This document shows, piece by piece, positions 36,910-54,071 of a stretch of 57,270 nucleotides of DNA (positions within the stretch are counted from its first letter, which is position 1; each line of letters begins with the position of its first letter). Below the pieces are notes generated by a model. It was not told the DNA's origin and did not search any database. It saw only the letters and a program-made list of their open reading frames with translations. Position numbers and translations under genes: made by a program. The stretch covers positions 1 through 57,270 of the forward strand of contig JALXAG010000139.1 in assembly GCA_026992315.1 (NCBI GenBank), in the 5' to 3' direction. This DNA is from Sneathiellales bacterium (GTDB lineage Bacteria; Pseudomonadota; Alphaproteobacteria; Minwuiales; Minwuiaceae).

Positions 36910-36919
36910 GGAGTGAACG

Positions 36920-38710
36920 ATGCCAACCTATACTGCGCCGACAGACGATTACAAATTCCTGCTGCATCAGGTCTTCAATCTGCAAAATCAGGCCAATGTG
37001 CCCGGTTTCGAGGAGGCAACGCCCGATCTGATCGACGCCATTCTCGATGAGGGCGGCAAGTTCCTCTCCGAGGTGATCGCCCCGCTCAATCAGGTGGGGG
37101 ATCGCGAAGGCTGTGTGTGGAAGGACGGGGAGGTCACCACGCCCCCCGGCTTCAAGCAGGCATATGATCAGTATTGCGAAAGCGGTTGGAACGGTCTGAC
37201 CGCCGATCCGGAATATGGCGGTCAGGGCCTGCCGCATGTGCTGGGCACCGTGTTCAGCGAAATGATCAGCAGTGCCAACCTGTCCTTCGGCATGTATCCG
37301 GGGCTGACCCACGGTGCCTATGAGGCCATCGTCCGGCACGGATCGGAAGAACAGAAGAAGCTTTATCTGCCGAAGATGGTCAGCGGCGAATGGACCGGCA
37401 CCATGAACCTGACGGAGCCTCACTGCGGCACCGATCTGGGGCTGATGCGCACCAAGGCCGAACCGCAGGAAGACGGCACTTACCGGATCACGGGAACGAA
37501 GATTTTCATTTCCGCCGGTGAGCATGACATGAGCCGGAACATCATCCATCTGGTGCTGGCGAAGATTCCCGGCGGGCCGGAAGGCATCAAGGGGGTCAGC
37601 CTGTTCATCGTGCCGAAATTCCTCGTCAACGAGGACGGCTCGCTGGGCGAACGCAATGCCGTAAGCTGCGGCTCCATCGAAGAGAAGATGGGCATTCACG
37701 GCAATTCGACCTGTGTGATGAACTATGACGGCGCCGTCGGCTATCTGGTCGGACAGAAGCACAAGGGCATGCGGGCGATGTTCACCATGATGAATGCCGC
37801 CCGTCTCGGCGTCGGCATTCAGGGGCTCAGCCAGGCCGAGGTCGCCTATCAGAACGCCGCCGCCTATGCTCGCGAACGCCTTCAGGGGCGGTCGATTTCC
37901 GGCGCGAAAAACCCCGATCTGCCGGCGGATCCGATCATCGTGCATCCCGATGTGCGGCGCATGCTGCTGACGATCCGTTCCTTCACCGAAGGGGCGCGGG
38001 CCCTGGCCACATGGATCGGCATCCAGATCGACCTGGCCGAAAAGCATCCCGATCCCCAGGTGCGCAAGGAATGCGAGGATCTGGTCGCTCTGGTGACGCC
38101 GGTGGTCAAGGGGTTCCTGACCGATGCCGGTTTCGAATCGACCGTCATGGCGATGCAGGTGCTGGGCGGGCACGGCTATATTCGCGAACACGGCATGGAA
38201 CAATTCGTTCGCGATGCCCGTATCACCCAGATCTATGAGGGGGCCAACGGCATTCAGGCGCTCGATCTGGTGGGACGCAAGCTGCCGCAGGGTTTCGGCA
38301 GGCTCTTGCGGCGGTTCTTCCACCCCCTGCTCGATTTCATTCAGGAAAATATGAGCGACCCTGCAATGAAGGATTTCATCATGCCGCTGGCCAAGGGCAC
38401 GGCCAAGCTGCAGCAGGCGACGGCCCATCTGGCAGAGGCCGGGATGAAGAATCCGGACGAGATGGGGGCCGCCTCGGCCGAATATCTGCGCATGTTCGGC
38501 ATCGTGACCTTGGGCTATATGTGGGCGCGCATGGCCAAGGTTGCCAATGAACGCCTTGCCGAGGGGGCGGAACCGCGCAGCTATTACGAAAACAAGCTGC
38601 TGGTGGGGCGTTTTTACATGCAGCGCTGGATGCCCGATGTATCCTCGTTGTTCGTGAAGATGGCCGCGGGCGGCAAGGTGATGATGTCGATGGATCAGGA
38701 CGCGTTCTGA
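36920..38710 (+). CDS. acyl-CoA dehydrogenase (long, about 600-aa FadE/YusJ-like type)
   Basis: 596 aa. ..MNLTEPHCGTDLG.., ..GIHGNSTC.. and ..LGGHGYIREHGMEQFVRDARITQIYEGANGIQ... Confidence 0.9.
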   Translation: MPTYTAPTDDYKFLLHQVFNLQNQANVPGFEEATPDLIDAILDEGGKFLSEVIAPLNQVGDREGCVWKDGEVTTPPGFKQAYDQYCESGWNGLTADPEYGGQGLPHVLGTVFSEMISSANLSFGMYPGLTHGAYEAIVRHGSEEQKKLYLPKMVSGEWTGTMNLTEPHCGTDLGLMRTKAEPQEDGTYRITGTKIFISAGEHDMSRNIIHLVLAKIPGGPEGIKGVSLFIVPKFLVNEDGSLGERNAVSCGSIEEKMGIHGNSTCVMNYDGAVGYLVGQKHKGMRAMFTMMNAARLGVGIQGLSQAEVAYQNAAAYARERLQGRSISGAKNPDLPADPIIVHPDVRRMLLTIRSFTEGARALATWIGIQIDLAEKHPDPQVRKECEDLVALVTPVVKGFLTDAGFESTVMAMQVLGGHGYIREHGMEQFVRDARITQIYEGANGIQALDLVGRKLPQGFGRLLRRFFHPLLDFIQENMSDPAMKDFIMPLAKGTAKLQQATAHLAEAGMKNPDEMGAASAEYLRMFGIVTLGYMWARMAKVANERLAEGAEPRSYYENKLLVGRFYMQRWMPDVSSLFVKMAAGGKVMMSMDQDAF

Positions 38711-38824
38711 TCGTCGTTACGGCAAGGGGCGGCACCGGATGCGGTGTCGCCTTTTTCGCATAACAAGGAAACGGAGTTTCCGGCGGCCCCGCGTCGCCGG
38801 GCTCAACCGTTCAGGGAGGGTGGC

Positions 38825-39967
38825 ATGGCGCTGAAGCGCGAAATTTTTTCCGAGGAACACGAAATTTTCATCGAACAGGCCCGCCGTTTCATGGAGGAGG
38901 AGCTGCTTCCCCATACGGAACGCTGGGAGGAGCAGGGTTACGTCGACCGCGATGTCTGGTTGAAGGCCGGAGAGCTGGGCCTGCTGTGCCCGACCATGCC
39001 GGAAGAATATGGCGGATCCGGTGTCGACCGTCTGTTCAGCATGATCCTGATCGAGGAACAGGCCCGCGTCGGCTGTTCCGGCCCCGGTTTTTCGCTGCAT
39101 TCGGATATCGTGGCGCCTTATATCCTGCATTATGGTACCGAAGAGCAGAAAAAGCGCTGGCTGCCGGAAATGGCGGCCGGCCGGGCCATCGGTGCCATCG
39201 CCATGACCGAACCGGGCGGCGGTTCCGATCTGCAGGCGGTGAAAACAACCGCCATCCGCGACGGCGACGAGCTGGTGATCAACGGTGCCAAGACCTTCAT
39301 CACCAATGGCTGGCATGCGGATATTGTGATCGTTGTCTGCAAGACCGATCCCAGCCAGGGCGCCAAGGGGATCTCCCTGGTGCTGGTGGAAGGCGACCGG
39401 GAAGGGTTCCGCAAGGGCAAGCGGCTGAAAAAGATGGGCATGAAGGCCCAGGACACGGCGGAATTGTTCTTCGACGATGTGCGGGTGCCGGTTGCCAACA
39501 TGCTCGGCGCCGAGGGCCAGGGCTTCGTCTATCTGATGCAGGAACTGGCCTGGGAGCGGCTGCAGATCGCCATATCCGCCATCGCCAATGCCGAGGCGGC
39601 CTTGCGCTGGACCCAGGATTACGTCAAGGAACGCAAGGCTTTCGGCCAAAGGATCGCCGATTTCCAGAATACGCGCTTCAAGCTGGCGGAAATGGCGACT
39701 GAAATTCAGATCGGGCGCGTCTTCGTCGATCGCTGCATGCAGGATGTGCTGAAGAACGAACTGGATCCGACCACGGCGGCCATGGCCAAATACTGGTGCT
39801 CCGACCTGCAGTGCAAGGTGCTGGACGAAGGCGTGCAGCTTCACGGGGGTTACGGCTATATGTGGGAATATCCCATTACCCGTGCCTTTGCCGATGCGCG
39901 CGTTCAGCGCATTTACGGCGGTACCAACGAAATCATGAAGGAACTGATCGGCCGCTCTCTGGTATGA
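38825..39967 (+). CDS. acyl-CoA dehydrogenase (380 aa, classical)
   Basis: ATG 38825 preceded by AGGGAGGG. ..AMTEPGGGSDL.. and ..HGGYGYMWEYPITRAFADARVQRIYGGTNEIMKELI... Confidence 0.92.
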   Translation: MALKREIFSEEHEIFIEQARRFMEEELLPHTERWEEQGYVDRDVWLKAGELGLLCPTMPEEYGGSGVDRLFSMILIEEQARVGCSGPGFSLHSDIVAPYILHYGTEEQKKRWLPEMAAGRAIGAIAMTEPGGGSDLQAVKTTAIRDGDELVINGAKTFITNGWHADIVIVVCKTDPSQGAKGISLVLVEGDREGFRKGKRLKKMGMKAQDTAELFFDDVRVPVANMLGAEGQGFVYLMQELAWERLQIAISAIANAEAALRWTQDYVKERKAFGQRIADFQNTRFKLAEMATEIQIGRVFVDRCMQDVLKNELDPTTAAMAKYWCSDLQCKVLDEGVQLHGGYGYMWEYPITRAFADARVQRIYGGTNEIMKELIGRSLV

Positions 39968-40027
39968 TTACCGGCGGGTCCGAGCGTAACCGATGAAGCG
40001 GCACGGCGCCGCAGACAGGAGGCAAGG

Positions 40028-41236
40028 ATGACGGAAGCCCTGATTTACGACACGGTCAGAACGCCGCGCGGCAAGGGCCGCAAGGGTGGTGGCCTGAACA
40101 GCATGACGCCGATTTCCCTGGCCAGCCATGTGCTGAAGGAAATCCGCGACCGCAACGAACTGGATACCAGCCTGGTCGATGACGTGATCCTGGGTTGTGT
40201 GGAACCGGTGGGCGAACAGGGGGCGGATATCGCGCGTGTGGCGGTGCTGAATGCCGATTATGCCGAAACCACATCGGGCGTGCAGATCAACCGCTTCTGC
40301 GCCAGCGGGCTGGAGGCCTGCAACATGGCGGCGGCGCAGGTGATGTCCGGTCAGTCCGACTTCGCCATTGGCGGCGGGGTGGAAAGCATGAGCCGGGTGC
40401 CGATGATGTCCTCGGGCGGGGCCTGGGCGTCGGATCCGGCGGTGGCCTTCAAGACCTATTTCGCGCCGCAGGGGGTCAGCGCCGATCTTATCGCCACCCT
40501 GCATGGCTTCAGCCGCGACGATGTCGATGCCTATGCCGTGGAAAGCCAGCGCCGCGCGGCCGAGGCATGGAAGGAAGGCCGTTTCGCCAGATCCGTGGCG
40601 CCGGTGAAGGATATCAACGGCGTTACGGTGCTGGATCGCGACGAGCATATGCGCCCTGAAACCACCATGCAGAGCCTGGCGGCGCTGGAGCCTTCCTTCA
40701 AGATCCAGGGCGAGAATTACGGTTTCGATTCCGTGGTCAGGCAGCGCTATCCGGAGGTGGAGCGCATCGACCACGTGCATCATGCGGGCAATTCCTCCGG
40801 CATCGTCGACGGGGCCGCTGTGGTGCTGATCGGCTCGCCCGAAGCGGGCAAGGCCGCCGGCCTGAAGCCGCGGGCGCGTATCCGGGCCTTTACCTCCATC
40901 GGCTCGGAGCCTTCGATCATGCTGACCGGTCCCTCCTATGCGGCGGAAAAGGCGCTGAAGCGCGCGGGGATGACGCGCTCCGATATCGATCTGTGGGAAC
41001 TGAACGAGGCCTTCGCCTCTGTCGTTCTGCGCTTCATGGAGCTGATGGAAATTCCGCACGATCAGATCAACGTCAATGGCGGCGCCATTGCCATGGGCCA
41101 TCCGCTGGGCGCGACGGGGGCGATGATCCTCGGCACGGTGCTGGACGAGCTGGAGCGGCGCGATCTCAACACGGCGCTGGTGACGCTCTGCGTCGGCGCG
41201 GGCATGGGCACGGCGACCATCATCGAACGGGTCTGA
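40028..41236 (+). CDS. acetyl-CoA C-acyltransferase (FadA-like thiolase)
   Basis: 402 aa. ..[11 protein letters not shown].., ..NEAFASV.. and ..[17 protein letters not shown]... Confidence 0.95.
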
Positions 41237-41298
41237 AACGAGCCGCCGAACGAAACACTATCAGAACGGGGCGCCCGCCAGGCGGGCGGTAAGGGAAT

Positions 41299-43434
41299 AT
41301 GATCGAATTTCATGTTGAATCCGATGGGGTCGCGGTCCTGACCTGGAATGTCACCGACCGGCCGATGAATGTGCTGAACGAGGCCAGCATCGCGGCTTTC
41401 GAAGCGGCCATGGAAAAGGTGCTGAGCGACGATGCCATCAAGGGGGCGGTTGTCACCTCCTCGCACAAGGAATTCATCGTCGGCGCCGATATCCGCATGC
41501 TTGAGGAAATGGGTGACACCGCCGAAGAAATCTATGCCAAGGGGGCGCGCATTCAGGCGCTTTTCCGCCGCCTTGAAACCGGCGGGAAACCCTTTGTGGC
41601 CGCAATCAACGGTCATGCCCTCGGTGGCGGTTACGAGCTGTGCCTGGCCTGTCACCGGCGGATCGCGGCCGAAGAGGGGCGCATCAAGATCGGCTTGCCG
41701 GAAAGCAAGCTGGGCCTGCTGCCGGGTGGCGGCGGTACCCAGCGGCTGCCTCGGCTGATCGGGATTCAGCAGGCGGTGCCGCTGATGCTGGAAGGGCGGG
41801 ATGTCGATCAGCGCCGGGCGTTGAAGATGGGCATGATCGACGAGCTGGTTCCGGCCGGAGAGCTGGTCGGCCGTGCCCGCCAGTGGGTGCTGGAACAGGG
41901 GGATGAAAAAATCCTTCAGCCGTGGGACAGCAAGGGATACCGCATTCCGGGCGGCGGTGTGCAGACGCCCAAGGTGCAGCAGTTCTTCGTTGCCGGCAAT
42001 GCCCTGCTGCGCGAAAAGACCTATGGCAATTATCCGGCGCAGCGCAACATCATGTCCTGCGTTTTCGAAGGATTGCAGACCGATCTGGATACGGGGCTGA
42101 AGATCGAAACCCGTTATTTCGCCAATTGCCTGCTTTCGCCGGAAGCGAAAAACATGATCCGCTTCTTCTTCTCGATGACCGATGCCAATAAATTGTCGCG
42201 CCGTCCGAAGGATGTGGAAAAAAGCCGCTTCAGCCGTATCGGCGTGCTCGGTGCGGGCATGATGGGGGCGGGAATAGCCTATGTTACCGCCGCCGCCGGC
42301 ATGGAGGTGGTGCTGATCGATACCAGCCAGGAAGCAGCGGAAAAGGGGCGCGATTACAGCCGCGCCCTGGTGGAAAAGCAAATGAAGCGCGCTCGCCTGA
42401 CTCAGGCGGCGGCGGATGCCCTGCTGGACCGCATTCATCCGACGACCGATTTCGCCGATCTGGCCGGCTGCGAGCTGGTGATCGAGGCGGTTTTCGAGGA
42501 TCGGGCCATCAAGGCCGATGTCACGGCCAGGGCCGAAGCGGTGGTTGGCGAGGATGCGGTTTTTGCCTCCAACACGTCGACCTTGCCGATTTCCGGTCTG
42601 GCGGAGGCCAGCAGCCGTCCGGCAATGTTCATCGGGCTGCACTTCTTCTCGCCGGTCGAGAAAATGCCGTTGGTCGAAATCATCCGCGGACGCGAGACCG
42701 GTGCCGTTGCCCTGGCCCGTGCCATGGATTTTGTCCGGGCCATCGGCAAGACGCCGATTGTCGTCAATGACAGCCGGGGTTTCTTTACCAGCCGGGTGTT
42801 CGCCACCTATGTGCGCGAGGGGCTGGCGATGCTGGCCGAAGGGGTGAAGCCGGCGCTGATCGAAAATGCCGGGCGGATGGCCGGCATGCCGGTCGGGCCG
42901 CTGGCGCTGGCCGATGAAGTGTCGATCGAGCTGATGTACAAGATCATGAAGCAGACAAGGGCCGATCTGGGCGATGCCTATGTGGTCCAGCCCGGCGATG
43001 ACGTCATCGTCAAATGGGTCGAGGAGCTGGGCCGTATCGGCAAGAAGGCCGGCAAGGGCTTCTATGAATATCCGCAGGATGGCGGAAAATTCCTCTGGCC
43101 CGGCATCGGCGACCATTACCCGCTGGCCGCCAGCCAGCCCGATGTGCAGGAACTGATCCGGCGCATGCTCTATATTCAGGCCGTGGAAAGCGCCCGCTGC
43201 ATGGAAGAAGGGGTGGTGGAAGACCCGCGCGATGCCGATGTCGGCTCGGTCATGGGCTGGGGATTCCCGCCCTTTCACGGCGGTGTTGCCAGCCTGGTCG
43301 ATGAGGTGGGGGCGGATGCCTTCGTCGCCCGCTGCGAAGGGCTGGCGCAGAAATATGGCGCCCGCTTCAGCCCGCCGCAATCGCTGCGCGATCTGGCGGC
43401 GGCGGGCAATGGCTATTACGGCCGTGCCGCCTGA
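41299..43434 (+). CDS. fatty-acid oxidation multifunctional protein, enoyl-CoA hydratase / 3-hydroxyacyl-CoA dehydrogenase (FadB/FadJ-type, ECH-first)
   Basis: 711 aa. N-terminal crotonase ..[38 protein letters not shown].., then Rossmann ..[16 protein letters not shown]... Confidence 0.92.
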
Positions 43435-43450
43435 ACCCGGTGGTTGGCGT

Positions 43451-43485
43451 CGCCCCTGCCTCGTGGCGGGGGCGGCATTTATTTG
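43451..43485 (+). terminator. hairpin plus T-rich tail after the FadB-type gene (convergent junction with the FlgC-like gene)
   Basis: CGCCCCTGCC-TCGT-GGCGGGGGCG (10-bp stem, one G-U) followed by GCATTTATTTG. Confidence 0.45.
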
Positions 43486-43880
43486 TTGAAGGCCGACAGC
43501 AGCGCGCGATCCATGTCTTCCTGAGTGCGCACCAGGGAAGCGGCCGCCTTGTATTGCAGGGCGGCCTGTTTCTGGGTTACGGCCTCTTCGACATAATCGA
43601 CATTGGGAAAGGCGCTGTAGCCGGTGGGGCTGGACGGATCCGGCCCGACATAGGCCGAAGGGCTGCGTTCGCGGCTGACCGCCCGGACCCCGCCGCCGGG
43701 GGCGGATGTGAGGTCCACATCCTGGGCCCGATAGGCCGCCGTCACCCTGGCGGGGTCGACGGCTTCGCCTTTTTCCACCGGTTTGGTGGAACGGGCATTG
43801 ACGGTATTGCTGGCGGATACAGCCAGCTTGCGCGATGCCGCGTTCATTCCCGACACGGCTATGGGGAGAATATCGACCAT
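43479..43880 (-). CDS. flagellar basal-body rod protein FlgC-like (orphan copy)
   Basis: 133 aa. N-terminal rod motif ..[22 protein letters not shown].. and C-terminal ..[38 protein letters not shown]... As recalled, these are collinear with the FlgC N- and C-terminal conserved segments. Confidence 0.7.
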
Positions 43881-43948: not shown

Positions 43949-44743
43949 TTATCCATTGTGGGCGCGCTCCTTTCGCGCCGCGGCGCGTTCGGCAAGCAGG
44001 CTTTTGTAAAGATCGGTATCGACGATCAGATCGGGCAGATGCTCGCGGACCTCGTCCGTGGGTACCCAGCCTTCACGTACCATCATCGGCTTTTCAAACG
44101 TCAGATCGACTATGGTGTTCATGGAACGGCTGCCTGCGGCCTGCCCGGCCGATGTCGGGCCGTCATCGAGATAAATATCGACCTGTTCGCCAAGATCGCA
44201 GGCGGCCTTTTCCAGACTGACGTGAATATCCCCCTGTCCGGAGATATTGGCGCTGGTGGCGGCGACCGGCCCTTCGAAGGCCTCCAGCACCGCGCGGAAG
44301 ACCGGATGGGTCGTCGATGAAATGGCAATGGTGCCAAGCCCGCAGGTCAGCCTTTCGCAGAAGGGGTAAAGCTGTGGCAGGATGAAGCATATCTCTCCGG
44401 GCAGCATTGCCTCGACCGCGCGGCGCTGTTGCCCTTCGGGAAGGACGACATATTCGCGGATGCGTGCCGGATCGGCGATCTGCACCGGCAGGGGGCCCAG
44501 CTTGACGCGCTTTTTGGCAGCGAAGACCTTTTCCACGGCTTCCGGGTTGGTGGCATCGCAGAGCAGGCAGTAATTGGTAATCGTGGGGCTGACGATGATG
44601 CCGCCTTCGCGCATGGCCTGAACCGCGCGTTCGATATGGGCGGGCGTGGCAGAGAGAATGCGTTCGGCGACGGAGAGGCCGAGATCGGCACGGCTGATTT
44701 CATCGCTGTTTCTGAGGGGGGATGTCTTCATCTCGGGCTCCAT
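43949..44743 (-). CDS. YrdC/Sua5/TsaC-fold protein (stand-alone YrdC-like domain), paralog B
   Basis: 264 aa. ..GGIIVSPTITNYCLLCDATNPEAVEKVFAAKKRVKLGPLPVQ.. (K-x-R motif region) and ..PVAATSANISGQG... No Sua5 C-terminal domain or other fused domain recognised. Alternative start ATG 44731. Confidence 0.75.
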   Translation of the reverse strand: MEPEMKTSPLRNSDEISRADLGLSVAERILSATPAHIERAVQAMREGGIIVSPTITNYCLLCDATNPEAVEKVFAAKKRVKLGPLPVQIADPARIREYVVLPEGQQRRAVEAMLPGEICFILPQLYPFCERLTCGLGTIAISSTTHPVFRAVLEAFEGPVAATSANISGQGDIHVSLEKAACDLGEQVDIYLDDGPTSAGQAAGSRSMNTIVDLTFEKPMMVREGWVPTDEVREHLPDLIVDTDLYKSLLAERAAARKERAHNG

Positions 44744-44760
44744 GATTCTGTTTGCGGGAC

Positions 44761-45963
44761 TCAGGAACGGGCGGGGGACGGCTGCAGCCGTGCTGCGGCG
44801 GCGAGGAAGAACAGGGTGACGATGCCGCTCAATACGGCGAAGCCGATCATCAGCGTGGCAAAGTCATAGCGGGAAAGCACCCAGCCGCCGAACACGATGG
44901 CGAAGGCATTGGCCACGCCATAGAGACGCTCCATGCGCGAAATGGCGTTGCTGCGGGTTTTTGTCGGCAGGCCGATGCCGTTCAGGGCGCTCATCGTCAG
45001 GGGGCGGACACAGCCGGCGGCAAGCCCCAATGCCGTGATCGCGGCCAGCCCGGGAACGATGCTGCCGGGCCAGAAAAGCGGGCTGGCGCCGAAGAGGGCG
45101 AGAGAGAATATGATCAGCGTCAGAACAAGAGACGTGGCCGTACGAATGCCTGTTGCCGCCATGATCGCGCCGGCCTGCCGGGCGCTGAAGAACGCCGCCA
45201 GGGTGAACAGGCTGAGCACGAGGCCGAAATAGTACAGATCGATTTTCAGGATCAGGAAGAAATAATACGGCAGGAAAGCGACGAAGATCGACAGGGCGGT
45301 GGCGCGGATGATGACATAGAATGCGGCCCAGAACCGTTGTTCGAAACGGTGATGGCCTGCCGCTGCGTTCTCATCTTCCGGAGCAGCGCTTGTCGGTGTC
45401 GCAGAGGCCGGGGTGGCGCCTGTGCGGGCGCGGTAGGGGATCATGAACATCGCTGCCGCCGCCAGCAATGCCGCCCCGGCCGCGGCAAGAAACGGCAGCT
45501 CCGGCCGGTAGCGGAACAGGATGGAGCCACTGGTGCCAGCCAGCAGCATGCCGATGAATACCCAGGACTGGGAGCGCGCTTCGTGCCGGCGATAGGCCGT
45601 CATCTCGTCATCGGCGAACTGGGCTCGCAGCAGGGCGGAATCCGTGCCCTGGGCCAGGGCATAGCCAATGCCGCCCAGGATCTGTGCCAGCAGGAAGCCC
45701 GGCACTTCGGGCCAGGATACCATGACCAGAAGCCCGCCGGCCTTGGCGATTTCGCCGCCGCCAATGACGATTTTCAGCGACAGGCGGGTGGCGAGAACGG
45801 GCGCCAGCGGTGCCGTCAGTGCCAGTGTCATCGCATAAACGGCAATCAGAAGCTCGACGGTGAACAGATCGGAGCCATGAAGATAGAGAAAGACGAAAAT
45901 GACGGGCAGATGGAAATAGAGACGGGAGATGATGCGATAGGCGTAAAACAGTTTTACGTTCAT
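44761..45963 (-). CDS. MFS transporter
   Basis: 400 aa with about 12 hydrophobic segments and a central Pro/Ala/Thr-rich loop. Sits in the operon between the amidohydrolase and YrdC-like B. Confidence 0.8.
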   Translation of the reverse strand: MNVKLFYAYRIISRLYFHLPVIFVFLYLHGSDLFTVELLIAVYAMTLALTAPLAPVLATRLSLKIVIGGGEIAKAGGLLVMVSWPEVPGFLLAQILGGIGYALAQGTDSALLRAQFADDEMTAYRRHEARSQSWVFIGMLLAGTSGSILFRYRPELPFLAAAGAALLAAAAMFMIPYRARTGATPASATPTSAAPEDENAAAGHHRFEQRFWAAFYVIIRATALSIFVAFLPYYFFLILKIDLYYFGLVLSLFTLAAFFSARQAGAIMAATGIRTATSLVLTLIIFSLALFGASPLFWPGSIVPGLAAITALGLAAGCVRPLTMSALNGIGLPTKTRSNAISRMERLYGVANAFAIVFGGWVLSRYDFATLMIGFAVLSGIVTLFFLAAAARLQPSPARS

Positions 45964-46010
45964 GATCTTTCCGTTGTTTTCCGTTCTGCCCGCCCGATTG
46001 ACGCGGTGCG

Positions 46011-47159
46011 TTATTCGGCCGCCGCCCTGTGCCGGAGGGCCGGCAGGCGATAGAAGGCCCTGGCATTGCTGACCAGGATTTTTTCGTGGTCCGTCAGCTC
46101 GCTGTTCTGGGCCACGACTTCATAGGCCTTCAGAAGCTGCCCCCCCTCGAAGTGGATATGGGGGAAATCCGCCGCGATCATCAGCTTGTCCGTGCCGATG
46201 AGTTTTGCGAAACCGGCGAGGTTTTCCTCGTCCCCCTCGCAGGAGAAGGCTACATTACCGCCTTTAACATAGTCCAAAGCCTTATTAGCACTACCCCAAG
46301 GGGAAACAGTCGGTATTGAGTACCATGCATTGAGGCGTTTGAACAGGGCCTCGTAAAGCACGGTCGAACCTTCGATGAAGGCGACACGCAGATCGGGAAA
46401 ACGGTCCAGAATACCGCCGCCGAACATGGAATAGGCCCCCATCAGCACCGATATGTCGAAGCCGAACATGTATGAGGTGGCAACCGTGTCGCAGGTGGAA
46501 ACGAGGCCGTCATGCCCCCAGCCGACATGCACGGCGACGGGCATGTCCTCGTCCACGCAGGCCTGCCAGAAGGGATCGTGCAGGGGGTCGTGCAGGAAGC
46601 GGTTGCCGGCCGTGCCCAGCACCATGACCGCGACGGCACCGAGTGCCTTGGCCCGGCGCATTTCCCCGATGGCACCGGGAACATGGCGCAGCCCGACCGG
46701 GGCGGCGAAGAACAGCCGTTCCGGGAAGGCGGCGCATTGCTCGGCCATGTAATCGTTATAGGCGCGCATCAGCGCCGCTTCGAAGGCCAGATCGTCGGTC
46801 AGGTTCTGCAGGAACAGGGTCGGATAGAGCACGGACTGCAGGATGCACTGGCGGTCCATGTCGGCGATGCGGGCAGCCGGATCCTCGAGGGTTTGCGAGG
46901 CGATGGCCACCGGTTTGCCCTTGGCATGATCGGTCAGCGGCGGCGTGCCCATGGCGATGGCGCCATGGCCCCAGGGCTTGGGAAACAATGCCCCGTCGAT
47001 CAACCAGGAAAAATTGCGGTTGGGACGGATGCGATTGGTGAAGCCGACGGCCTGCGGCCGGCGGTCGGCAAAGGCGGGGTCGAGATGGTCCCAGACGGCA
47101 TCCGGCTCTTCGATATGGCTGTCGCTGTCGGTCATCCAGATATCTTTGCTGCTCATCAT
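46011..47159 (-). CDS. amidohydrolase_2 (ACMSD/LigW-type metal-dependent hydrolase/decarboxylase) family protein
   Basis: 382 aa. N-terminal ..MTDSDSHIEEP.., ..NDYMAEQ.., ..PVAVHVGWGH.. and a C-terminal ..AADFPHI.. pattern typical of PF04909-like TIM-barrel enzymes. The second ATG (47156) has better SD spacing. Confidence 0.72.
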   Translation of the reverse strand: MMSSKDIWMTDSDSHIEEPDAVWDHLDPAFADRRPQAVGFTNRIRPNRNFSWLIDGALFPKPWGHGAIAMGTPPLTDHAKGKPVAIASQTLEDPAARIADMDRQCILQSVLYPTLFLQNLTDDLAFEAALMRAYNDYMAEQCAAFPERLFFAAPVGLRHVPGAIGEMRRAKALGAVAVMVLGTAGNRFLHDPLHDPFWQACVDEDMPVAVHVGWGHDGLVSTCDTVATSYMFGFDISVLMGAYSMFGGGILDRFPDLRVAFIEGSTVLYEALFKRLNAWYSIPTVSPWGSANKALDYVKGGNVAFSCEGDEENLAGFAKLIGTDKLMIAADFPHIHFEGGQLLKAYEVVAQNSELTDHEKILVSNARAFYRLPALRHRAAAE

Positions 47160-47167
47160 ACCCTCCT

Positions 47168-47899
47168 TCAGGCTGTCAGGCGCTGATCTTCGCCGTCTTC
47201 ACGGGTGATGATTTCGTAATAGAAGTCATGCAGCCGCCGCCAGGCGCCCATGGCATCGCGGATGGTCTTTTCCGCCACCGGCAGGTAATCGGGCATTTCG
47301 TGGAAATATTTGGCGATCATGCGGCGCCGTCCGAGGGAATGTTCGACATCGTCTTCCGCATGGACGGGGAACCATTCCATCGCCTCGTCGGACAGGCCAT
47401 ACTGTTCCTGGAAGGCCTTGTGCATCTTGATGACGCCATCGGGAATTTGCGCTTCCAGGGCGTAATAGGCGGTCAGTCCCACCAGATAGTGATTGTCGCG
47501 GCACAGATCGATGACGAAATTGCAGTAGCGCATCACCTCCTCATGAGGCGGGTTGTTCAGCACCTCTTCCTCTGTTGTCCCCAGGGCACAGGCGAAGCGC
47601 ATCATCAGGCGGTAATGGCTTTCGGAACCCGATGTGTAGCCCGTTTCCTCGGCGATCAGGTTTTCCATCTCGAAGGCGCGGACATCCTCGGGAATGGAAC
47701 GGGAATGTATTGCCGAGAAAGCGCGAATCTGATGAAAGACCTGCCAGTATTTCTGCATCGCCCATTCGCGTACCAGATGTTTGGCGATCGGTCCGGCCGT
47801 AACGCGCTGCACGAAGCTGTGCTTGGTGTAGCGCAGCTCTTCGATGATCGGGTCGAGGCGGGCGAAGACATCCTCGGCGGTCAGTTCCCTGTTGCTCAT
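47168..47899 (-). CDS. haem-oxygenase-like fold protein (PqqC/TenA/iron-containing redox enzyme family)
   Basis: 243 aa, all-helical. ..HSFVQRVTAG..REWAMQKYWQV..AEETG..SHYRLMMRFACALG..EAQIP..FPVHAEDDVEHS.. resembles the PqqC/CADD-type layout, including Glu/His-rich helices. SD AAGGAGA 7 nt upstream. Confidence 0.62.
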   Translation of the reverse strand: MSNRELTAEDVFARLDPIIEELRYTKHSFVQRVTAGPIAKHLVREWAMQKYWQVFHQIRAFSAIHSRSIPEDVRAFEMENLIAEETGYTSGSESHYRLMMRFACALGTTEEEVLNNPPHEEVMRYCNFVIDLCRDNHYLVGLTAYYALEAQIPDGVIKMHKAFQEQYGLSDEAMEWFPVHAEDDVEHSLGRRRMIAKYFHEMPDYLPVAEKTIRDAMGAWRRLHDFYYEIITREDGEDQRLTA

Positions 47900-47926
47900 G
47901 GTTTTTCTCCTTGTATCGACGCCACG

Positions 47927-48679
47927 TCAGGCGCTGTGGCGTTGCAGTTTTTCGCGTAAGGGGCGGGCGGCTTCGTCGATCATGGCGAAGTTGACCCCCT
48001 TGCGGCGGATGCCGAAATCGCGCAGGTCGATCATGGTGGTGGCAAGACGGGCATCGTTGGCATGCAGACAGGTGCCGATGTTCAGCTTCCAGTCGACGTG
48101 ATCGACCAGTTCGGGGCCGCATTCCTCCATGCGATAGGAATTTCCCCGGGTCGAGACATTGCCGGATGTCGCCACCACCAGAACGTCATCGAGGGCGGCG
48201 CGTTTGACCAGGGCTTCGGCAAAGGTGCCGCAGCGAAGAAAGACGGCAATGGAATCCTCGCGCGATGTGTGCTCACGGACGAAAGGATCCATTTTCGCCA
48301 GCATGCGCGATCTCGGATTCTTCGGCCCTATCACCGCTATGGTCGTTTTGGCGGTGATCTCGTGCAGGAACTGCCAGGTCTCATCGGGCAAGGGCAGCAT
48401 CAGGTCGGGCAGAAGATTGAGATTGCCGACCGTGATCGCCGGGTTCCACAAGGGCCGCTGCTTCAGGCGGTACATTTTGCGCAGGCCGGATTCCCTGTAG
48501 CAGAACAGCCCGTAGCCGATATCGGCGGGGCCGAGCAGCAGCCCGCCCTTCATCATGCAGCGATAGGCGTCCTCGATCGTATCGTGCAGGCGTTCGGGAC
48601 CCAGGGCATCCTTGTCCTCAGGCGGTACGACGGCCAGCGGGCGGCCGTCATCGGTCATTTTGATGTCGGGTGCGTTCAA
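47927..48679 (-). CDS. YrdC/Sua5/TsaC-fold protein (stand-alone YrdC-like domain), paralog A
   Basis: ..GGLLLGPADIGYGLFCYRESGLRKMYRLKQRPLWNPAITV.. and ..VVATSGNVSTRGN... The in-frame TTG at 48679 has AAGGAGG six nt upstream. The track ORF starts at 48739; ATG 48658 is another option. Confidence 0.65.
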   Translation of the reverse strand: MNAPDIKMTDDGRPLAVVPPEDKDALGPERLHDTIEDAYRCMMKGGLLLGPADIGYGLFCYRESGLRKMYRLKQRPLWNPAITVGNLNLLPDLMLPLPDETWQFLHEITAKTTIAVIGPKNPRSRMLAKMDPFVREHTSREDSIAVFLRCGTFAEALVKRAALDDVLVVATSGNVSTRGNSYRMEECGPELVDHVDWKLNIGTCLHANDARLATTMIDLRDFGIRRKGVNFAMIDEAARPLREKLQRHSA

Positions 48680-48863
48680 GACGTTCCTCCTTGCAGGGGC
48701 GTGCCGGGCGTGCCGCCCTCGTGTTTGCTGATCTTTCATGATGGCCGTTGCTGATTAAGGCCAATGGCGGGAACAGCGGCAAGGTGCACATACAACTGTG
48801 GAAGGTGGTGATATCGCTGTATGCATATTTATGGGGCGGCAGTTTTTTTGCTTTGAAAAAAGC

Positions 48864-48875
48864 ACGAACGTTCGT
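48864..48875. promoter_or_regulatory. perfect 12-bp palindrome ACGAACGTTCGT, 11 nt upstream of the TetR start (candidate TetR operator in the divergent promoter region)
   Basis: Read directly. Adjacent inverted repeat TGCTTT-GAAA-AAAGCA at 48849-48864. Confidence 0.5.
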
Positions 48876-48886
48876 ATTATTAAGAG

Positions 48887-49525
48887 ATGCAGAAAGGGCA
48901 GAAAACACGCGAACGCATTATCGAGGCCGCCCTGGCCGCAGCGACCCATCGCGGCCTGGAGGGGATATCCATCGGTGCCCTGGCAAAGGAAACTGGCCTG
49001 TCGAAAAGCGGGTTGTTCCGGCATTTCGGTTCGAAGGAGGCGCTGCAGATCGCCGTGGTTCAGCGGGTGACGGACCGCTTCGGCGATATCGTGATCAGGC
49101 CCGCCTTGAATGAAACCAGCGGTGTGGAGCGTCTGCGCAGTCTGTTTGCCCATTATTCCGATTGGCTGGCATCGAGTGAAGGCGATGAAAGGGAAGGCTT
49201 TCATCCCGGCTGCCCCTTCTTCGCCATGGCATCCGACAATGCGCTGCTCGCCGGGCCTGTCCGGATCTTCATCGCCGCCCAGACGCAGCGTCTGCGCGAA
49301 ACGGTCGAGCGAATGGCCTGGAAGGCCGTGGACGAAGGGACGTTTCGCGAGGATCTCGATGTCAGTCGTTTTGCCTTCGCCCTGATCAGTCTGATTTTCG
49401 GTTTCAATTTTTTCCGCCGTATTCACGACGATTCCGCTTATGCCGTCTGGGCAGCCGATGCCTTCGAGGATCTGCTGACGGATGCGGCACGCCGGCCCGC
49501 CGTGGCCTCAGATAATGGAGAATGA
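48887..49525 (+). CDS. TetR/AcrR family transcriptional regulator
   Basis: 212 aa. ..RERIIEAALAAATHRGLEGISIGALAKETGLSKSGLFRHFGSKEALQ.. is the TetR HTH. Confidence 0.9.
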   Translation: MQKGQKTRERIIEAALAAATHRGLEGISIGALAKETGLSKSGLFRHFGSKEALQIAVVQRVTDRFGDIVIRPALNETSGVERLRSLFAHYSDWLASSEGDEREGFHPGCPFFAMASDNALLAGPVRIFIAAQTQRLRETVERMAWKAVDEGTFREDLDVSRFAFALISLIFGFNFFRRIHDDSAYAVWAADAFEDLLTDAARRPAVASDNGE

Positions 49526-50057
49526 CGTGAACAACGCTTCCGCAGCCCAGGATGAATACATCGTCGAGGATATCGTCAACGACATCGCCCCAAGACCGGT
49601 GTCGAAGGCTGAAATGATGAAAATGGATGGCTATCACATCATGAAGGGCATGATGGATGGCCTGATGCCACCGCCGCCGATCGCCATGTTGCTCGATTTT
49701 ACCATCCGGCGTATCGCCCGGGGGGAATGCGATTTCAAGGGGCCGGCCAAGCCGGAATTCTGTAACCCCTATGGCACCGTGCATGGCGGCTATTTGGCGA
49801 CGTTGCTGGATTCGGCCATGACCTGCGCCGTTCAGACGACCCTGCCGCCGGCCACCGCCTGTACCACGGTGGAGCTGAAGGTCAATTATGTTCGTGCCGT
49901 TCCCGGTGACGGACGCATGCTGCATGCCAGGGCCAGGATCATCCATGGCGGGCGTAAGCTGATGACTTCGGAAGCGCGGCTGGAGGATGATGACGGCAAG
50001 CTCTATGCCCATTCCACAACCACGGTCATGGCGCTGCCCCTTCAGCCGCAGGGCTGA
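49515..50057 (+). CDS. PaaI-family (hotdog-fold) thioesterase
   Basis: ..NPYGTVHGGYLATLLDSAM..VELKVNYVRAV..ARIIHGGRKLMTSEARL... The start ATG 49515 overlaps the TetR 3' end by 11 nt. Confidence 0.8.
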   Translation: MENDVNNASAAQDEYIVEDIVNDIAPRPVSKAEMMKMDGYHIMKGMMDGLMPPPPIAMLLDFTIRRIARGECDFKGPAKPEFCNPYGTVHGGYLATLLDSAMTCAVQTTLPPATACTTVELKVNYVRAVPGDGRMLHARARIIHGGRKLMTSEARLEDDDGKLYAHSTTTVMALPLQPQG

Positions 50058-50140: not shown

Positions 50141-50704
50141 TCAGGGGCGCTGCACGATCCACTCGACCCGCGCCGCCCATTCGGCCTGCAGGTCGTAATA
50201 GGCGGCCTCTTCCGTCAGAACCGTATACAGCCCCGGCGCGCTACCCTTCAGCAGATGGCCGAACAGAATCTGTCCGTCGCGCGTTTTGACCGCCACCTGT
50301 TTTTCCAGCCCTTCCCGGGGATGATCGAGGCGGCGGCAGATGATCGCCTGTTTTTTTGGCGGACGGCAGGCATCGTCGATGATCGCCATCAGACGTGAAT
50401 CGGCCAGATCGATGCGCAGGCTGCGGCAGTTCAGACCGTCGGGGCGAACGATGCCTCCGTGCAGTTCCCCCAGCAGCGGCAGGGTGTTGGGGCAGCTGTC
50501 TTCTTCAATGAGGGCAAGAGGCGGAACATCCAGCGCCCTGGCAATGCGCATCTGCACATCCGGCATCAGTCTGCGGTGGCCGTTTTCGATACGTGACAAG
50601 TGCTGAACGGAGAGACCGGTTCTCGCTGCCAGATCCGCGAGTTTGAGATGTTGCTGCTTGCGGATCGCGCGGATCCGGTTTGTCGTCTTTTTTGCTTCGG
50701 CCAT
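50141..50704 (-). CDS. XRE-family HTH / S24 (LexA/CI-like) C-terminal domain repressor
   Basis: From internal Met 38: MAEAKKTTNRIRAIRKQQHLKLADLAARTGLSVQHLSRIENGHRRL.. (XRE HTH), then a C-terminal beta-rich domain of CI/LexA size. I could not identify the catalytic Ser/Lys with certainty. Confidence 0.75.
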   Translation of the reverse strand: MAEAKKTTNRIRAIRKQQHLKLADLAARTGLSVQHLSRIENGHRRLMPDVQMRIARALDVPPLALIEEDSCPNTLPLLGELHGGIVRPDGLNCRSLRIDLADSRLMAIIDDACRPPKKQAIICRRLDHPREGLEKQVAVKTRDGQILFGHLLKGSAPGLYTVLTEEAAYYDLQAEWAARVEWIVQRP

Positions 50705-50836
50705 GCCGACATACCTGTCCTGTTGTTGTTTTCTTTCTGAAAAGTTCCGGCCGGATGGCGGAAACCCATGGCCGGACGACATTTCTTCCCTGCGGGAAAT
50801 TATCACAACAGGCACATATGAGGCAGTATTTGCCCC

Positions 50837-52048: not shown

Positions 52049-52213
52049 GGATCGGGGAAATGGGTTTTCAGAAAAACAGTCTTGAGTTGAAAAATGGAAA
52101 TATTTTCATAGCGTAACAATTTCGTAACCGGGACCGGGGAAAATGGCGCCCTCCAGTTGCTGCTGGATGACAAAAAAGGCTTTGAATGCCTGAATGTTAC
52201 GAGGAGTGTTTCT

Positions 52214-52747
52214 ATGTCCGCCAGTGCCCTGACTGGGGTGGAACGCCATTTTTCCGCTGATGACGTCATCGTATCGAAGACCGACCTCAAGGGACGTATT
52301 ACCTATGCCAACCGCATTTTTCTGGAGATCTCCGGCTATGACGAAGAGGAAGTTCTCGGTCAGCCGCATTCGCTGATCCGTCATCCGCACATGCCCCGGG
52401 CGGTTTTCGCCCTGTTGTGGGATTATCTTCATGCCGGCCGGGAAATATTCGCCTATGTGCTCAACCGGGCCAAAGGCGGTGATCACTACTGGGTGCTGGC
52501 ACATGTAACGCCGAGCCATGATCCCGCAGGCAATGTCGTCGGTTATCATTCCAATCGCCGCGTCGGGGTCCCTGCCGTTATCAGGGGCACGATCGAACCG
52601 CTTTACGCCCGGTTGCTGGAAGAAGAGGCCCGCCACCATAACCGCAAGGAGGGGCTTCAGGCTTCATCGAAGCTTTTGTCCGCCATCCTCAAGCAGGCCG
52701 GGGAAAGCTATGACAGCTTTATCGGCAAGCTGTTGTTGCAAGGATAG
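52214..52747 (+). CDS. stand-alone Aer-type PAS domain protein
   Basis: ATG 52214 preceded by GAGGAG. ..IVSKTDLKGRITYANRIFLEISGYDEEEVLGQPHSLIRHPHMPRAVFALLWDYL..NRAKGGDHYWVLAHVTP.. is, as recalled, collinear with the E. coli Aer N-terminal (FAD-type) PAS domain. Confidence 0.85.
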   Translation: MSASALTGVERHFSADDVIVSKTDLKGRITYANRIFLEISGYDEEEVLGQPHSLIRHPHMPRAVFALLWDYLHAGREIFAYVLNRAKGGDHYWVLAHVTPSHDPAGNVVGYHSNRRVGVPAVIRGTIEPLYARLLEEEARHHNRKEGLQASSKLLSAILKQAGESYDSFIGKLLLQG

Positions 52748-52757
52748 GAGCAAGGGG

Positions 52758-54071
52758 ATGTTCGGGATAAAGCCTGCGGGGCGGAAAAATATCGGTGCCG
52801 GGGAGGTGCTGGCGGCGATCGAAGTGGCGCTGTTCGGCGACGATGCAGCTCAAAATGGTAAGGGGTCCCTTGCGGAACGGCTGGATAGTCTGTGCGCGGC
52901 CATTCGCAGCCATCGCCGCCGCCATGACGAAAGGCGCCGGACGCTGGAACGGATTACCGGGGTTTGCAGGCAGGTGTCGGGTGGAGATTTCGAGGCACGG
53001 CTGATTCATATAGGCAGCCTGCCGCCGGAAGAAAGGGCTGCCTGCGATGCGGTCAACGATCTGATCGACCGCACCGATGCCTTTATGCGCGAGGCGACGG
53101 CATCGCTGGATGCTATCAGCCATTGCCGCTATGACAGGCTGATGGTCGAAACGGGCATGCAGGGCCTCTATAGGGAGGCGGCGCGTAAAATCAATACCGC
53201 GACCCAGGTCGTGGCAGAGCGCGTGACCCGTTTCGCCGATGTGATCGACGGTTTCAGAAAAGAGGTATCCTCCGCACTGGGCGCCATAGATGCCGCCGGA
53301 ACCCGGCTGGAGCAGGCCTCGTCCGGCATGACTGAGACGGCGGCGCAGGCCCGGAGTCGGGCGGATAACGTTTCGGATGTTTTCACCAACCAGGTGGAGA
53401 TGGTTTCCATTGTCGCCGATGCGACGCAGGAGTTGTCCTCCTCGATTGCCGTATTGGGTGAGTCGGTACAGAAGGCTACGGGTATTGCCGGCGAAGCGGT
53501 GCGCGAGACCGCCCAGACAGAGGCCGAAATCTCCCGCCTGAGCGAAGCTTCCGAAACGATAGGCGATGTTCTGGAACTGATAAACGATATTGCTGAGCAG
53601 ACCAATCTTCTGGCACTGAACGCCACCATCGAGGCGGCCCGTGCCGGAGAAGCCGGCAAGGGTTTTGCCGTTGTTGCCCAGGAAGTGAAGAATCTGGCCG
53701 GGCAGACAGCGCGGGCGACGGAGGATATCGCCCGCCAGATCGACGGCATGCGCCAGGTGACCAATGCCGTGGTCGCGGCGATGGAACGTATTGGTGGTTC
53801 GGTCCGCAATGTCGATGAAATTGCCATGACCATGGCGGCGGCGGTAACTCAGCAAAGCGATGCCACCGATGAGATCGCCGGCAGTGCCCGCAAGGCTTTG
53901 CAGGAAATCAGGATTGTGGAACAGGATCTGGGCACCGTCAGCAGCATGGCCGGGCATGGGGCCGAAATGGCGGTGACGGTTCATGAGGCGGCCACGAATG
54001 TCCGTCGGGAGGCGGGCAATATCCGCGAACTGATATCCGGTTTCCTCGATGAAGCCGGCAAGGTGGCCTGA
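52758..54071 (+). CDS. methyl-accepting chemotaxis protein, cytoplasmic (no TM segment seen)
   Basis: ATG 52758, 10 nt after the PAS gene stop. Highly conserved hairpin tip ..EQTNLLALNATIEAARAGEAGKGFAVVAQEVKNLA... The N-terminal 150 aa are hydrophilic, with ..GDFEARL.. HAMP-like remnants. Confidence 0.9.
   Translation: MFGIKPAGRKNIGAGEVLAAIEVALFGDDAAQNGKGSLAERLDSLCAAIRSHRRRHDERRRTLERITGVCRQVSGGDFEARLIHIGSLPPEERAACDAVNDLIDRTDAFMREATASLDAISHCRYDRLMVETGMQGLYREAARKINTATQVVAERVTRFADVIDGFRKEVSSALGAIDAAGTRLEQASSGMTETAAQARSRADNVSDVFTNQVEMVSIVADATQELSSSIAVLGESVQKATGIAGEAVRETAQTEAEISRLSEASETIGDVLELINDIAEQTNLLALNATIEAARAGEAGKGFAVVAQEVKNLAGQTARATEDIARQIDGMRQVTNAVVAAMERIGGSVRNVDEIAMTMAAAVTQQSDATDEIAGSARKALQEIRIVEQDLGTVSSMAGHGAEMAVTVHEAATNVRREAGNIRELISGFLDEAGKVA

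Follow-up and report, generated by a model that had tools for sequence, protein, structure and literature searches.

The DNA analysed (referred to below as the window) comprises 57,270 nucleotides of a contig from a Sneathiellales bacterium (NCBI GenBank assembly GCA_026992315.1, contig JALXAG010000139.1, positions 1 to 57,270). Between positions 43949 and 48679 it carries a five-gene operon on the minus strand, divergent from a gene for a TetR-family regulator. Two stand-alone YrdC-fold proteins are encoded at the two ends of the operon, and a haem-oxygenase-fold protein, an amidohydrolase_2 protein and a transporter lie between them. The first three genes of the operon form a cassette that was also found in other genomes. 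The genes concerned are as follows.

47927..48679, minus strand: yrdC1, divergent stand-alone YrdC-fold protein, 250 aa, TTG start
47168..47899, minus strand: predicted CADD-like haem-oxygenase-fold two-metal oxidase (HDO), 243 aa
46011..47159, minus strand: ARO-like TIM-barrel protein (ARO, amidohydrolase-related dinuclear oxygenase), 382 aa
44761..45963, minus strand: MFS transporter, 400 aa, matching PF07690 at 65 bits
43949..44743, minus strand: yrdC2, TsaC-like stand-alone YrdC-fold protein, 264 aa (260 aa from the likely start at 44731)
48887..49525, plus strand: divergent TetR-family regulator, 212 aa, with TetR_N and TetR_C_13 domains, its position being kept in the related locus L011

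From yrdC1 to yrdC2 the five co-directional genes are separated by 27, 8, 47 and 17 nt; the same coordinates had been given in a first-pass annotation made from the sequence alone. Most of the genes had there been assigned a Shine-Dalgarno (SD) sequence of their own. Strong SDs precede the first three genes (AAGGAGGAA before the TTG start of yrdC1 at 48679, AAGGAG before the oxidase gene and GAAGGAGG before the ARO-like gene), and that of the MFS gene is weak (GGAAAG). For yrdC2 there is no SD at 44743; GGAG stands before an in-frame ATG at 44731, from which the public gene call (260 aa) begins. The TTG at 48679 and its SD are kept in a diverged relative of the locus, L011, and an upstream ATG at 48739 is not. 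Profile hidden Markov model searches matched all the expected families (PF01300, PF14518/PF03070, PF04909, PF07690 and the TetR domains). Ratios of non-synonymous to synonymous substitution (dN/dS) between the window and L011 were 0.07 for yrdC1, 0.03 for the oxidase, 0.04 for the ARO-like gene, 0.20 for the MFS gene and 0.11 for yrdC2. All five genes are thus under purifying selection, which is strong for the window copy. A plasmid search with the 5.7-kb region gave no match.

Related loci (approximately 30) were collected by an oxidase-alignment scan of genome and metagenome collections, together with contig look-ups for single homologues. Three contigs (L001-L003) that carry the identical oxidase belong to the same organism and therefore say nothing on conservation. 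In the resulting presence matrix, yrdC1, the oxidase and the ARO-like gene occur together in 18 distinct loci beyond the window lineage (L007/L030, L008, L015/L033, L016, L017, L018, L019, L020, L021, L029, L031, L034, L035, L037, L039, L041, L042 and L044), and yrdC2 is present in 9 of the 18. The loci are spread over Alpha-, Beta- and Gammaproteobacteria and Myxococcota. Named hosts are a Hyphomicrobiales metagenome-assembled genome (MAG), Ramlibacter, Pseudoalteromonas, Dasania, Sulfurifustis and Kofleriaceae; the rest are an unclassified proteobacterial MAG and unassigned metagenome contigs. The same cluster type was reached by a search begun from the ARO side (P0163).

Three gene orders were recorded: yrdC1-oxidase-ARO-yrdC2; LeuA-like-yrdC1-ARO-oxidase-(yrdC2); and LeuA-like-oxidase-ARO-LeuC-LeuD-yrdC1-yrdC2. 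The yrdC1 and oxidase genes overlap by 11 nt in L008, and elsewhere they are joined in a natural YrdC1-oxidase fusion, a single protein of 446 aa (P0007; L007 3521-4861, L030 4355-5707). The fusion locus is present in two independently assembled soil metagenomes, whose DNA is 99.7% identical and differs by a few single-nucleotide polymorphisms. Conserved co-occurrence, shuffled gene order and fusion are classic signs of a single pathway, and the proteins were therefore taken to belong to one. The neighbourhood conservation that the first-pass annotation had put forward as a check is robustly real, and the locus is rated as a probable cryptic small-molecule gene cluster with an unprecedented combination of enzymes. 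One MAG, CAYXDL01 (uncultured Hyphomicrobiales), holds both the reduced window-type cassette L011 and, on another contig, the complete cassette L015 (LeuA-like, aconitase, yrdC1, oxidase, ARO, yrdC2 and HlyD genes), which is only approximately 37-44% identical to the L011 copy. If the binning of this MAG is correct, L011 and L015 are two anciently diverged copies in one genome.

In both end genes PF01300 was the only domain detected (40.9 bits for YrdC1 and 133.1 bits for YrdC2, with a cut-off of 25.1), and the Pfam search found no SUA5, Kae1 or HypF domain in either protein. The motifs reported earlier, KQR...TSGNVSTRGN in YrdC1 and KKR...TSANISGQG in YrdC2, were present, and the description of both proteins as stand-alone members of the YrdC fold is supported. 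They are only 24% identical to each other and represent two separately conserved subfamilies. Orthologues of yrdC1 are linked with the oxidase in the 18 other loci; the closest yrdC1 homologues retrieved by word index lie on short contigs with no shared context. Since the two genes are adjacent, overlapping or fused, YrdC1 is the probable partner of the oxidase.

In Pa-Sua5, ATP is bound by the tetrad K56-x-R58/S143-x-N145 and threonine by T33/S181/R195 (PMC10321239). The tetrad is kept in both families (KQR and SGN in YrdC1, KKR and SAN in YrdC2), as is the Thr/Ser before S-x-N, and ATP-dependent adenylation by both enzymes would be expected. At the positions of the threonine-binding triad, alignment to 6f89 and within the families gave A/T/R for YrdC1 and T/N/R for YrdC2. 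The two proteins therefore share fold and tetrad with TsaC/Sua5, and YrdC2 also keeps T33 and R195, but they differ from that system in several respects: a SUA5 domain is missing, there are two distant paralogues, T33 is replaced by Ala in YrdC1 and S181 by Asn in YrdC2, and the cassette genes sit with oxygenase genes instead of with TsaBDE, YrdC1 even occurring fused to the oxidase.

These comparisons bear on the proposal that yrdC2 encodes nothing more than a housekeeping threonylcarbamoyl-AMP synthase (TsaC) serving the tRNA modification N6-threonylcarbamoyladenosine (t6A), placed by chance at the end of the operon. YrdC2 does pass the TIGR00057 equivalog cut-off (135.8 bits against 123.2; YrdC1, at 35.2, falls far below), it keeps K-x-R, S-x-N, T33 and R195, and, as the sequence at hand amounts to 57 kb, a canonical tsaC/sua5 could lie in the remaining genome. 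Against this, its orthologues (44-54% identity) travel with the cassette in 9 complete and 4 fragmentary loci. Scores against the TsaC type 1 model NF007919 (cut-off 175) are only 57.7 for YrdC2 and 67.9 for the gammaproteobacterial orthologue of L017, and the family carries non-canonical motifs (PT-x-TNY, S181 to N, N62 to G, H67 to Q) on a protein without a SUA5 domain. ANL enzymes replace yrdC2 in other variants of the cluster. A housekeeping TsaC is therefore judged very unlikely. No TsaB, TsaD or TsaE gene was found in the examined region of the window, and the earlier statement that this is not the housekeeping t6A arrangement holds.

The product of the second gene had been described as a PqqC/TenA-like and possibly cofactor-less protein. 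It scores 77.9 bits against PF14518 and also matches PF03070, and its best match in the PDB, by sequence and by fold, is CtCADD (E 2e-17; TM score 0.91 and root-mean-square deviation 1.8 Å to 8va9, compared from an AlphaFold2 model with pLDDT 94), at approximately 25-30% identity. The metal ligands of CADD, which we take from structure 1RCW to be E81, H88, E142, H174, D178 and H181, were aligned by HMMER with E84, H95, E149, H180, D184 and H187 of the oxidase. Five of these six (E84, H95, E149, H180 and H187) are invariant in the subfamily, together with its own signature W-A-x-Q-K-Y-H-Q. A word-indexed homologue search returned only the oxidase itself; the subfamily emerged by exhaustive search of 1.84 billion representatives, which gave 13 members at E<1e-30 (32-43% identity) before a drop to approximately 1e-19.

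In CADD, Tyr27 is the sacrificial or substrate residue and Lys152 its neighbour (PMC9522330). The first is replaced by V30 in the oxidase (Val or Ile in all 13 subfamily members) and the second by M159. The score against the CADD model TIGR04305 is 108 bits, below the cut-off of 200. With ligands and fold that match CADD, both residues missing and the score below the cut-off, the protein is best placed in the CADD clade as a metal-dependent oxidase, and not read as a PqqC/TenA-type protein or as a 4-aminobenzoate synthase; it would be expected to activate O2. The proposal that it is nevertheless a CADD-type 4-aminobenzoate synthase, and that the operon supplies a folate precursor, draws on CADD being its closest characterised relative and its best NCBIfam match. 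The replaced residues and the low score count against that proposal, and so does the gene context: none of the approximately 30 neighbourhoods contains folate genes, and the oxidase is instead found in the company of LeuA-like, LeuCD-like and adenylating enzymes. We regard it as extremely improbable.

In actinobacteria and in L023 a homologue of the oxidase lies beside LeuCD-like genes without YrdC or ARO-like genes, in the company of P450, UbiA, ANL and SARP genes. ANL-type AMP-binding enzymes were also seen near the oxidase in the actinobacterial oxidase-only loci L013 and L014.

The amidohydrolase_2 protein (PF04909, 81.9 bits) had been taken for a metal-dependent (de)carboxylase or hydrolase. 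AROs are defined by an N-terminal D-x-H in the first strand and a C-terminal D-x-P-H-x-D/E, and in a 2026 survey neither motif was found in any characterised PF04909 hydrolase or decarboxylase (PMC13154177). The window protein carries D13-S-H15 and D331-F-P-H334-I-H336, and D11, D13, H15, H211, E263, D331, P333 and H334 are invariant across 44 homologues. The terminal His (D-x-P-H-x-H) is found in all cassette-linked homologues and in the 21 closest database homologues; among the remaining top-120 homologues, 95 carry the canonical D-x-P-H-x-D/E. Relatives with the canonical motif were seen in unrelated contexts. In a sequence search of the PDB, PtmU3 (E 3e-20) and AibH2 (9e-15) came ahead of LigW and ACMSD. 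Foldseek placed DitZ, 4dzi and PtmU3 on top, with ACMSD nearly equal; fold search cannot separate AROs from ACMSD-type decarboxylases, and the ARO assignment is therefore based on the motifs and the sequence neighbours.

Relatives with 40-45% identity and the ending D-x-P-H-x-E were noted in L025 and L027, adjoining PhzF-like or RidA/luciferase-like genes. Relatives of this type, some of them tandem amidohydrolase_2 pairs, are all annotated merely as amidohydrolases.

Compared with the AROs known so far (PtmU3, DitZ, AibH2, SfbO, BarH/DolJ), the protein shares the PF04909 TIM barrel, D-x-H and the D-x-P-H loop, and these enzymes are its closest solved structures; it differs in that its clade ends the second motif in His instead of Asp/Glu and that no Rieske ferredoxin partner lies nearby. 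Because this final residue fails one defining position, the protein was not filed as a canonical ARO. Our reading is that it is an oxygenase derived from the AROs whose second-metal site has been altered; it would bind an Fe/Mn pair and activate O2, and a decarboxylase or hydrolase role is unlikely for it. The earlier scheme, in which a metal-dependent (de)carboxylase or hydrolase would act with two CO2- or carbamoyl-activating YrdC enzymes in a carboxylation or decarboxylation pathway, is undercut by the ARO motifs. PF04909 does include ACMSD, LigW and IDCase, the model fits the structures of ACMSD and LigW nearly as closely as those of the AROs, and a motif that ends in His is not a textbook ARO site; but D-x-H and D-x-P-H are both present, the nearest sequence relatives outside the clade carry the full canonical motif, and the best PDB sequence matches are oxygenases. 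The scheme was accordingly considered improbable.

The window operon is, by gene content, a reduced version of a larger cluster type. An HMGL/HCS_D2 LeuA-like synthase of approximately 390-420 aa, without the C-terminal regulatory domain, is encoded in 18 of the 18 loci, LeuC/LeuD-like subunits in most of them and a LeuB-like dehydrogenase in some; the LeuC, LeuD and LeuB paralogues of L017 score above the NCBIfam cut-offs. Of all cassette loci, only the window and L011 have no LeuA-like gene next to the cassette. The first-pass view of the five genes as one system thus stands as far as the conserved neighbourhood is concerned, but the set is not complete in itself: it is the reduced form of a type that otherwise always includes a LeuA-like gene and usually LeuCD-like genes. 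Frequent additional genes encode a citrate-synthase-like protein, a small nitroreductase-family protein and MFS, EamA, MatE or HlyD exporters. Homologues of the window MFS protein (35-37% identity) were found in the related loci L019 and L024, and other loci carry a different MFS protein or EamA/MatE/HlyD exporters. In four loci without yrdC2 (L021, L037, L039 and L041) the gene for an ANL AMP-binding enzyme closely follows the oxidase gene, in the position that yrdC2 takes in type-B loci, and in L008 two ATP-grasp ligases are found in place of yrdC2.

Directly downstream of four clusters lie Fe3+-type ATP-binding cassette (ABC) importers (L007 6829-8769, L016 16770-20179, L020 16895-20346 and L042 13713-16684), made up of a binding protein (SBP_bac_6/11), a permease with two domains and an ATPase with a TOBE domain. 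When the related clusters were scanned for Fur boxes, as a check on a possible metallophore product, only weak sites were obtained, the best being 14/19 in L018, with none upstream in L017. L037 and L021 contain a second, distant amidohydrolase_2 gene. A gene shortly upstream of the cluster in the Ramlibacter MAG (L016 4927-6168) codes for a protein of 413 aa that contains a LuxI-type autoinducer-synthase domain, which raises a possible quorum-sensing link. A phosphonate-type logic, with a homocitrate-synthase-like enzyme and an aconitase, was set aside provisionally, as no phosphoenolpyruvate (PEP) mutase was present among the annotated neighbours, although no search was aimed at PEP mutase specifically.

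Upstream of the operon and of the TetR gene the following features were annotated.

48864..48875, no strand: perfect 12-bp palindrome ACGAACGTTCGT, putative TetR operator, read directly
48853..48880, plus strand: sigma-70-like promoter of the TetR gene, TTGAAA-16-TATTAT, promoter-like by sequence, with the palindrome in its spacer
48745..48804, minus strand: two conserved intergenic blocks upstream of yrdC1, CATTGGCCTTAATCAGCAACGG and CCACAGTTGTATGTGCA-CTTGCCGC, common to the window and L011; candidate promoter region of the operon
49482..50057, plus strand: PaaI-type hotdog thioesterase (4HBT 60 bits, TIGR00369 82 bits), overlapping the TetR gene by 44 nt (49482-49525)

The perfect palindrome before the divergent TetR gene, noted in the first pass, is the sole exact copy of ACGAACGTTCGT in the window and lies 11 nt upstream of the TetR start codon and 185 nt from the yrdC1 start. 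By itself it proves little, since 25 perfect 12-bp palindromes occur in the window; its significance comes from L011, where it is conserved with both promoter hexamers although the adjacent bases have diverged. The putative operator most plausibly serves autoregulation of tetR, as the palindrome overlaps tetR's own promoter, and control of the divergent operon from the same site would be a further possibility. The tetR and thioesterase genes are probably co-transcribed, because they overlap by 44 nt. The thioesterase gene accompanies the cassette in the window and L011 but in none of the other cassette loci; a CoA-thioester step peculiar to the window lineage is conceivable, and its membership of the system is uncertain.

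Taken together, these results incline us, with somewhat more than even confidence, to regard the operon as the reduced form of a conserved but uncharacterised cassette that would tailor a small specialised metabolite, which is probably exported. In the full clusters a LeuA-like synthase, usually with LeuCD-like and sometimes with LeuB-like enzymes, would supply an alkylmalate or chain-extended 2-oxo acid, a scaffold suggested by the constant presence of LeuA-like and LeuCD-like enzymes. This leucine-pathway-type scaffold would then be oxidised by the two putative two-metal enzymes, the ARO-like TIM-barrel protein and the CADD-like oxidase, by C-H hydroxylation and/or oxidative C-C or C-N chemistry. 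Each YrdC enzyme would use ATP to form an acyl- or carbamoyl-adenylate that is captured as a new C-O or C-N bond, YrdC1 acting directly with the oxidase and the YrdC2 step being replaceable by ANL or ATP-grasp enzymes in other variants. The transporter would export the product, and a TetR repressor bound at the palindrome would gate expression. Biosynthesis of a released small molecule is suggested because exporters and ligases are found in the clusters. The ANL enzymes of variants without yrdC2 and the P450, UbiA and SARP genes beside the actinobacterial oxidase homologue are likewise neighbours of a biosynthetic kind. Since precursor genes are missing from the window, the substrate of the window copy would be provided by housekeeping leucine metabolism, by another, complete cluster of the same genome or by import.

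Several points weigh against this interpretation. The precursor for the window copy is a guess, because no LeuA-like, LeuCD-like, LeuB-like or citrate-synthase gene lies in the 57-kb window. A reductase or ferredoxin partner for the two oxygenases is not encoded at the window locus, and the small nitroreductase-family protein is found only in some loci. The metal site and chemistry of a protein with a terminal His may differ from those of known AROs. The Fe3+-type importers beside four related clusters are a sign of uptake in addition to export. For all members, the product, the intermediates and the enzyme activities are predicted from sequence. All characterised YrdC-fold enzymes known to us use carbamate or carbamoyl phosphate and never an ordinary carboxylate.

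The combination of TetR, MFS transporter, hotdog thioesterase and a neighbouring beta-oxidation block would suit a catabolic locus too. In the window genome the cassette would then serve degradation or salvage: the MFS protein would import a compound (which might be made by complete clusters of neighbouring organisms or by the organism's own second cluster), TetR would sense it, and the oxygenases and YrdC enzymes would degrade or remodel it, feeding the thioesterase and beta-oxidation. There is room for such a role because the precursor source of the window copy is not fixed, and it would explain the lack of any precursor-supply gene. A TetR gene, a divergent operon and an MFS gene form a common catabolic layout, the thioesterase gene (with tetR) and the acyl-CoA dehydrogenase/thiolase/FadB genes adjoin the operon, and both a reduced and a complete cassette seem to be present in a related MAG. 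Catabolic functions are also on record for characterised AROs such as AibH1H2 (PMC13154177). Two ATP-spending adenylate-forming enzymes would be unusual in degradation, however, and the same four enzymes are found elsewhere among anabolic genes and exporters; outside the window lineage, neither the thioesterase gene nor the beta-oxidation genes stay with the cassette. We consider a catabolic or salvage role unlikely, though deserving of attention, and retain biosynthetic tailoring as the favoured explanation.

A bolder version of the tailoring proposal assigns a new reaction type to the YrdC enzymes, namely ATP-dependent activation of a free small-molecule carbamate or carboxylate as obligate partner of the CADD-like oxidase. 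With the His-variant ARO they would build an oxidised CO2- or carboxyl-derived group (for example a cyclic carbamate, an N-hydroxy-carbamate or a lactone) on a leucine-pathway acid, giving a new class of secreted metabolite. The metabolite might be a metal chelator, because of the Fe3+-type ABC importers that flank four related clusters. This version is tentative and, on present evidence, more doubtful than not.

Each protein comes from a known superfamily (YrdC, haem-oxygenase-like two-metal oxidases, amidohydrolase-related oxygenases, MFS and TetR), and no enzyme meets the full definition of a characterised family. To our knowledge, almost all established roles of YrdC-fold proteins lie in tRNA t6A synthesis or in carbamoyl transfer alongside a Kae1-like partner. 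The latter systems, TobZ/NodU and HypF, combine a YrdC with a Kae1-like domain and resemble the cassette in using YrdC outside tRNA modification to make an adenylated one-carbon donor. They differ in that no Kae1-like, acylphosphatase or zinc-finger domain is encoded in the operon or in the related loci examined. The acceptor-side enzyme must hence be other than a Kae1-like domain, and possibly the oxidase, which can be fused to YrdC1, is a candidate.

The beta-lactone pathway of cystargolide and belactosin, in which two adenylating enzymes (CysF/CysC) and an ATP-grasp ligase build a small reactive warhead (PMC11427300), offers a precedent in logic only. It involves more than one ATP-dependent adenylate-forming step, as is proposed for the cassette, and the L008 variant also has two ATP-grasp ligases; unlike in the cassette, its adenylating enzymes have the ANL fold, and it employs a methyltransferase and a hydrolase and neither an ARO nor a CADD-like oxidase. 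No homology of the tailoring enzymes was found. Both compounds reportedly start from a 3-alkylmalate derived from a LeuA-like enzyme; the word 'malate' is absent from the text of the pathway paper.

The first-pass annotation had matched the combination to no known pathway, and full-text literature searches likewise yielded no paper linking YrdC/Sua5 with haem-oxygenase-like enzymes, LeuA-like synthases or aconitases. YrdC and the His-variant motif are both absent from the ARO survey (PMC13154177), and a term check of a 2026 HDO paper gave nothing relevant on a combination with YrdC. The cassette ties two distinct YrdC subfamilies to two different, putatively O2-activating two-metal enzymes, one of the YrdC proteins being found fused to the oxidase. 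If the proposed functions are correct, the chemistry of the universal YrdC family extends into specialised metabolism, the CADD clade gains a second, non-folate function, and a His-variant ARO clade is added that the published ARO motif filter misses. The loci would then represent a rare gene-cluster family across several phyla, with two cultured carriers, Pseudoalteromonas sp. S16_S37 (L017) and Dasania phycosphaerae GY-19 (L018), available for a product search.

The genes flanking the operon were also annotated. The beta-oxidation block (approximately 36000-43434, plus strand) converges on the cassette and encodes two acyl-CoA dehydrogenases together with a thiolase (40028-41236) and a bifunctional FadB-like enzyme (41299-43434). 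It is followed by a terminator-like hairpin at 43449-43476 and by an orphan gene for a FlgC-like rod protein of 133 aa (43479-43880, minus strand), 68 nt downstream of yrdC2. This protein scores 42 bits against TIGR01395 (cut-off 102) and 22.8 against Flg_bbr_C (cut-off 23), and its conservation in L011 is 92%. The annotated 20 kb around the cassette contain no further flagellar genes. The FlgC-like gene probably has its own promoter, because an AT-rich stretch with TTGACT lies upstream. On the other side of the operon, beyond the thioesterase gene, a 224-aa XRE-family helix-turn-helix protein with an uncharacterised C-terminal half is encoded at 50141-50815 on the minus strand. It is followed by a DUF6456 gene and by a PAS and methyl-accepting chemotaxis pair (52157-54071), all unrelated to the cassette.

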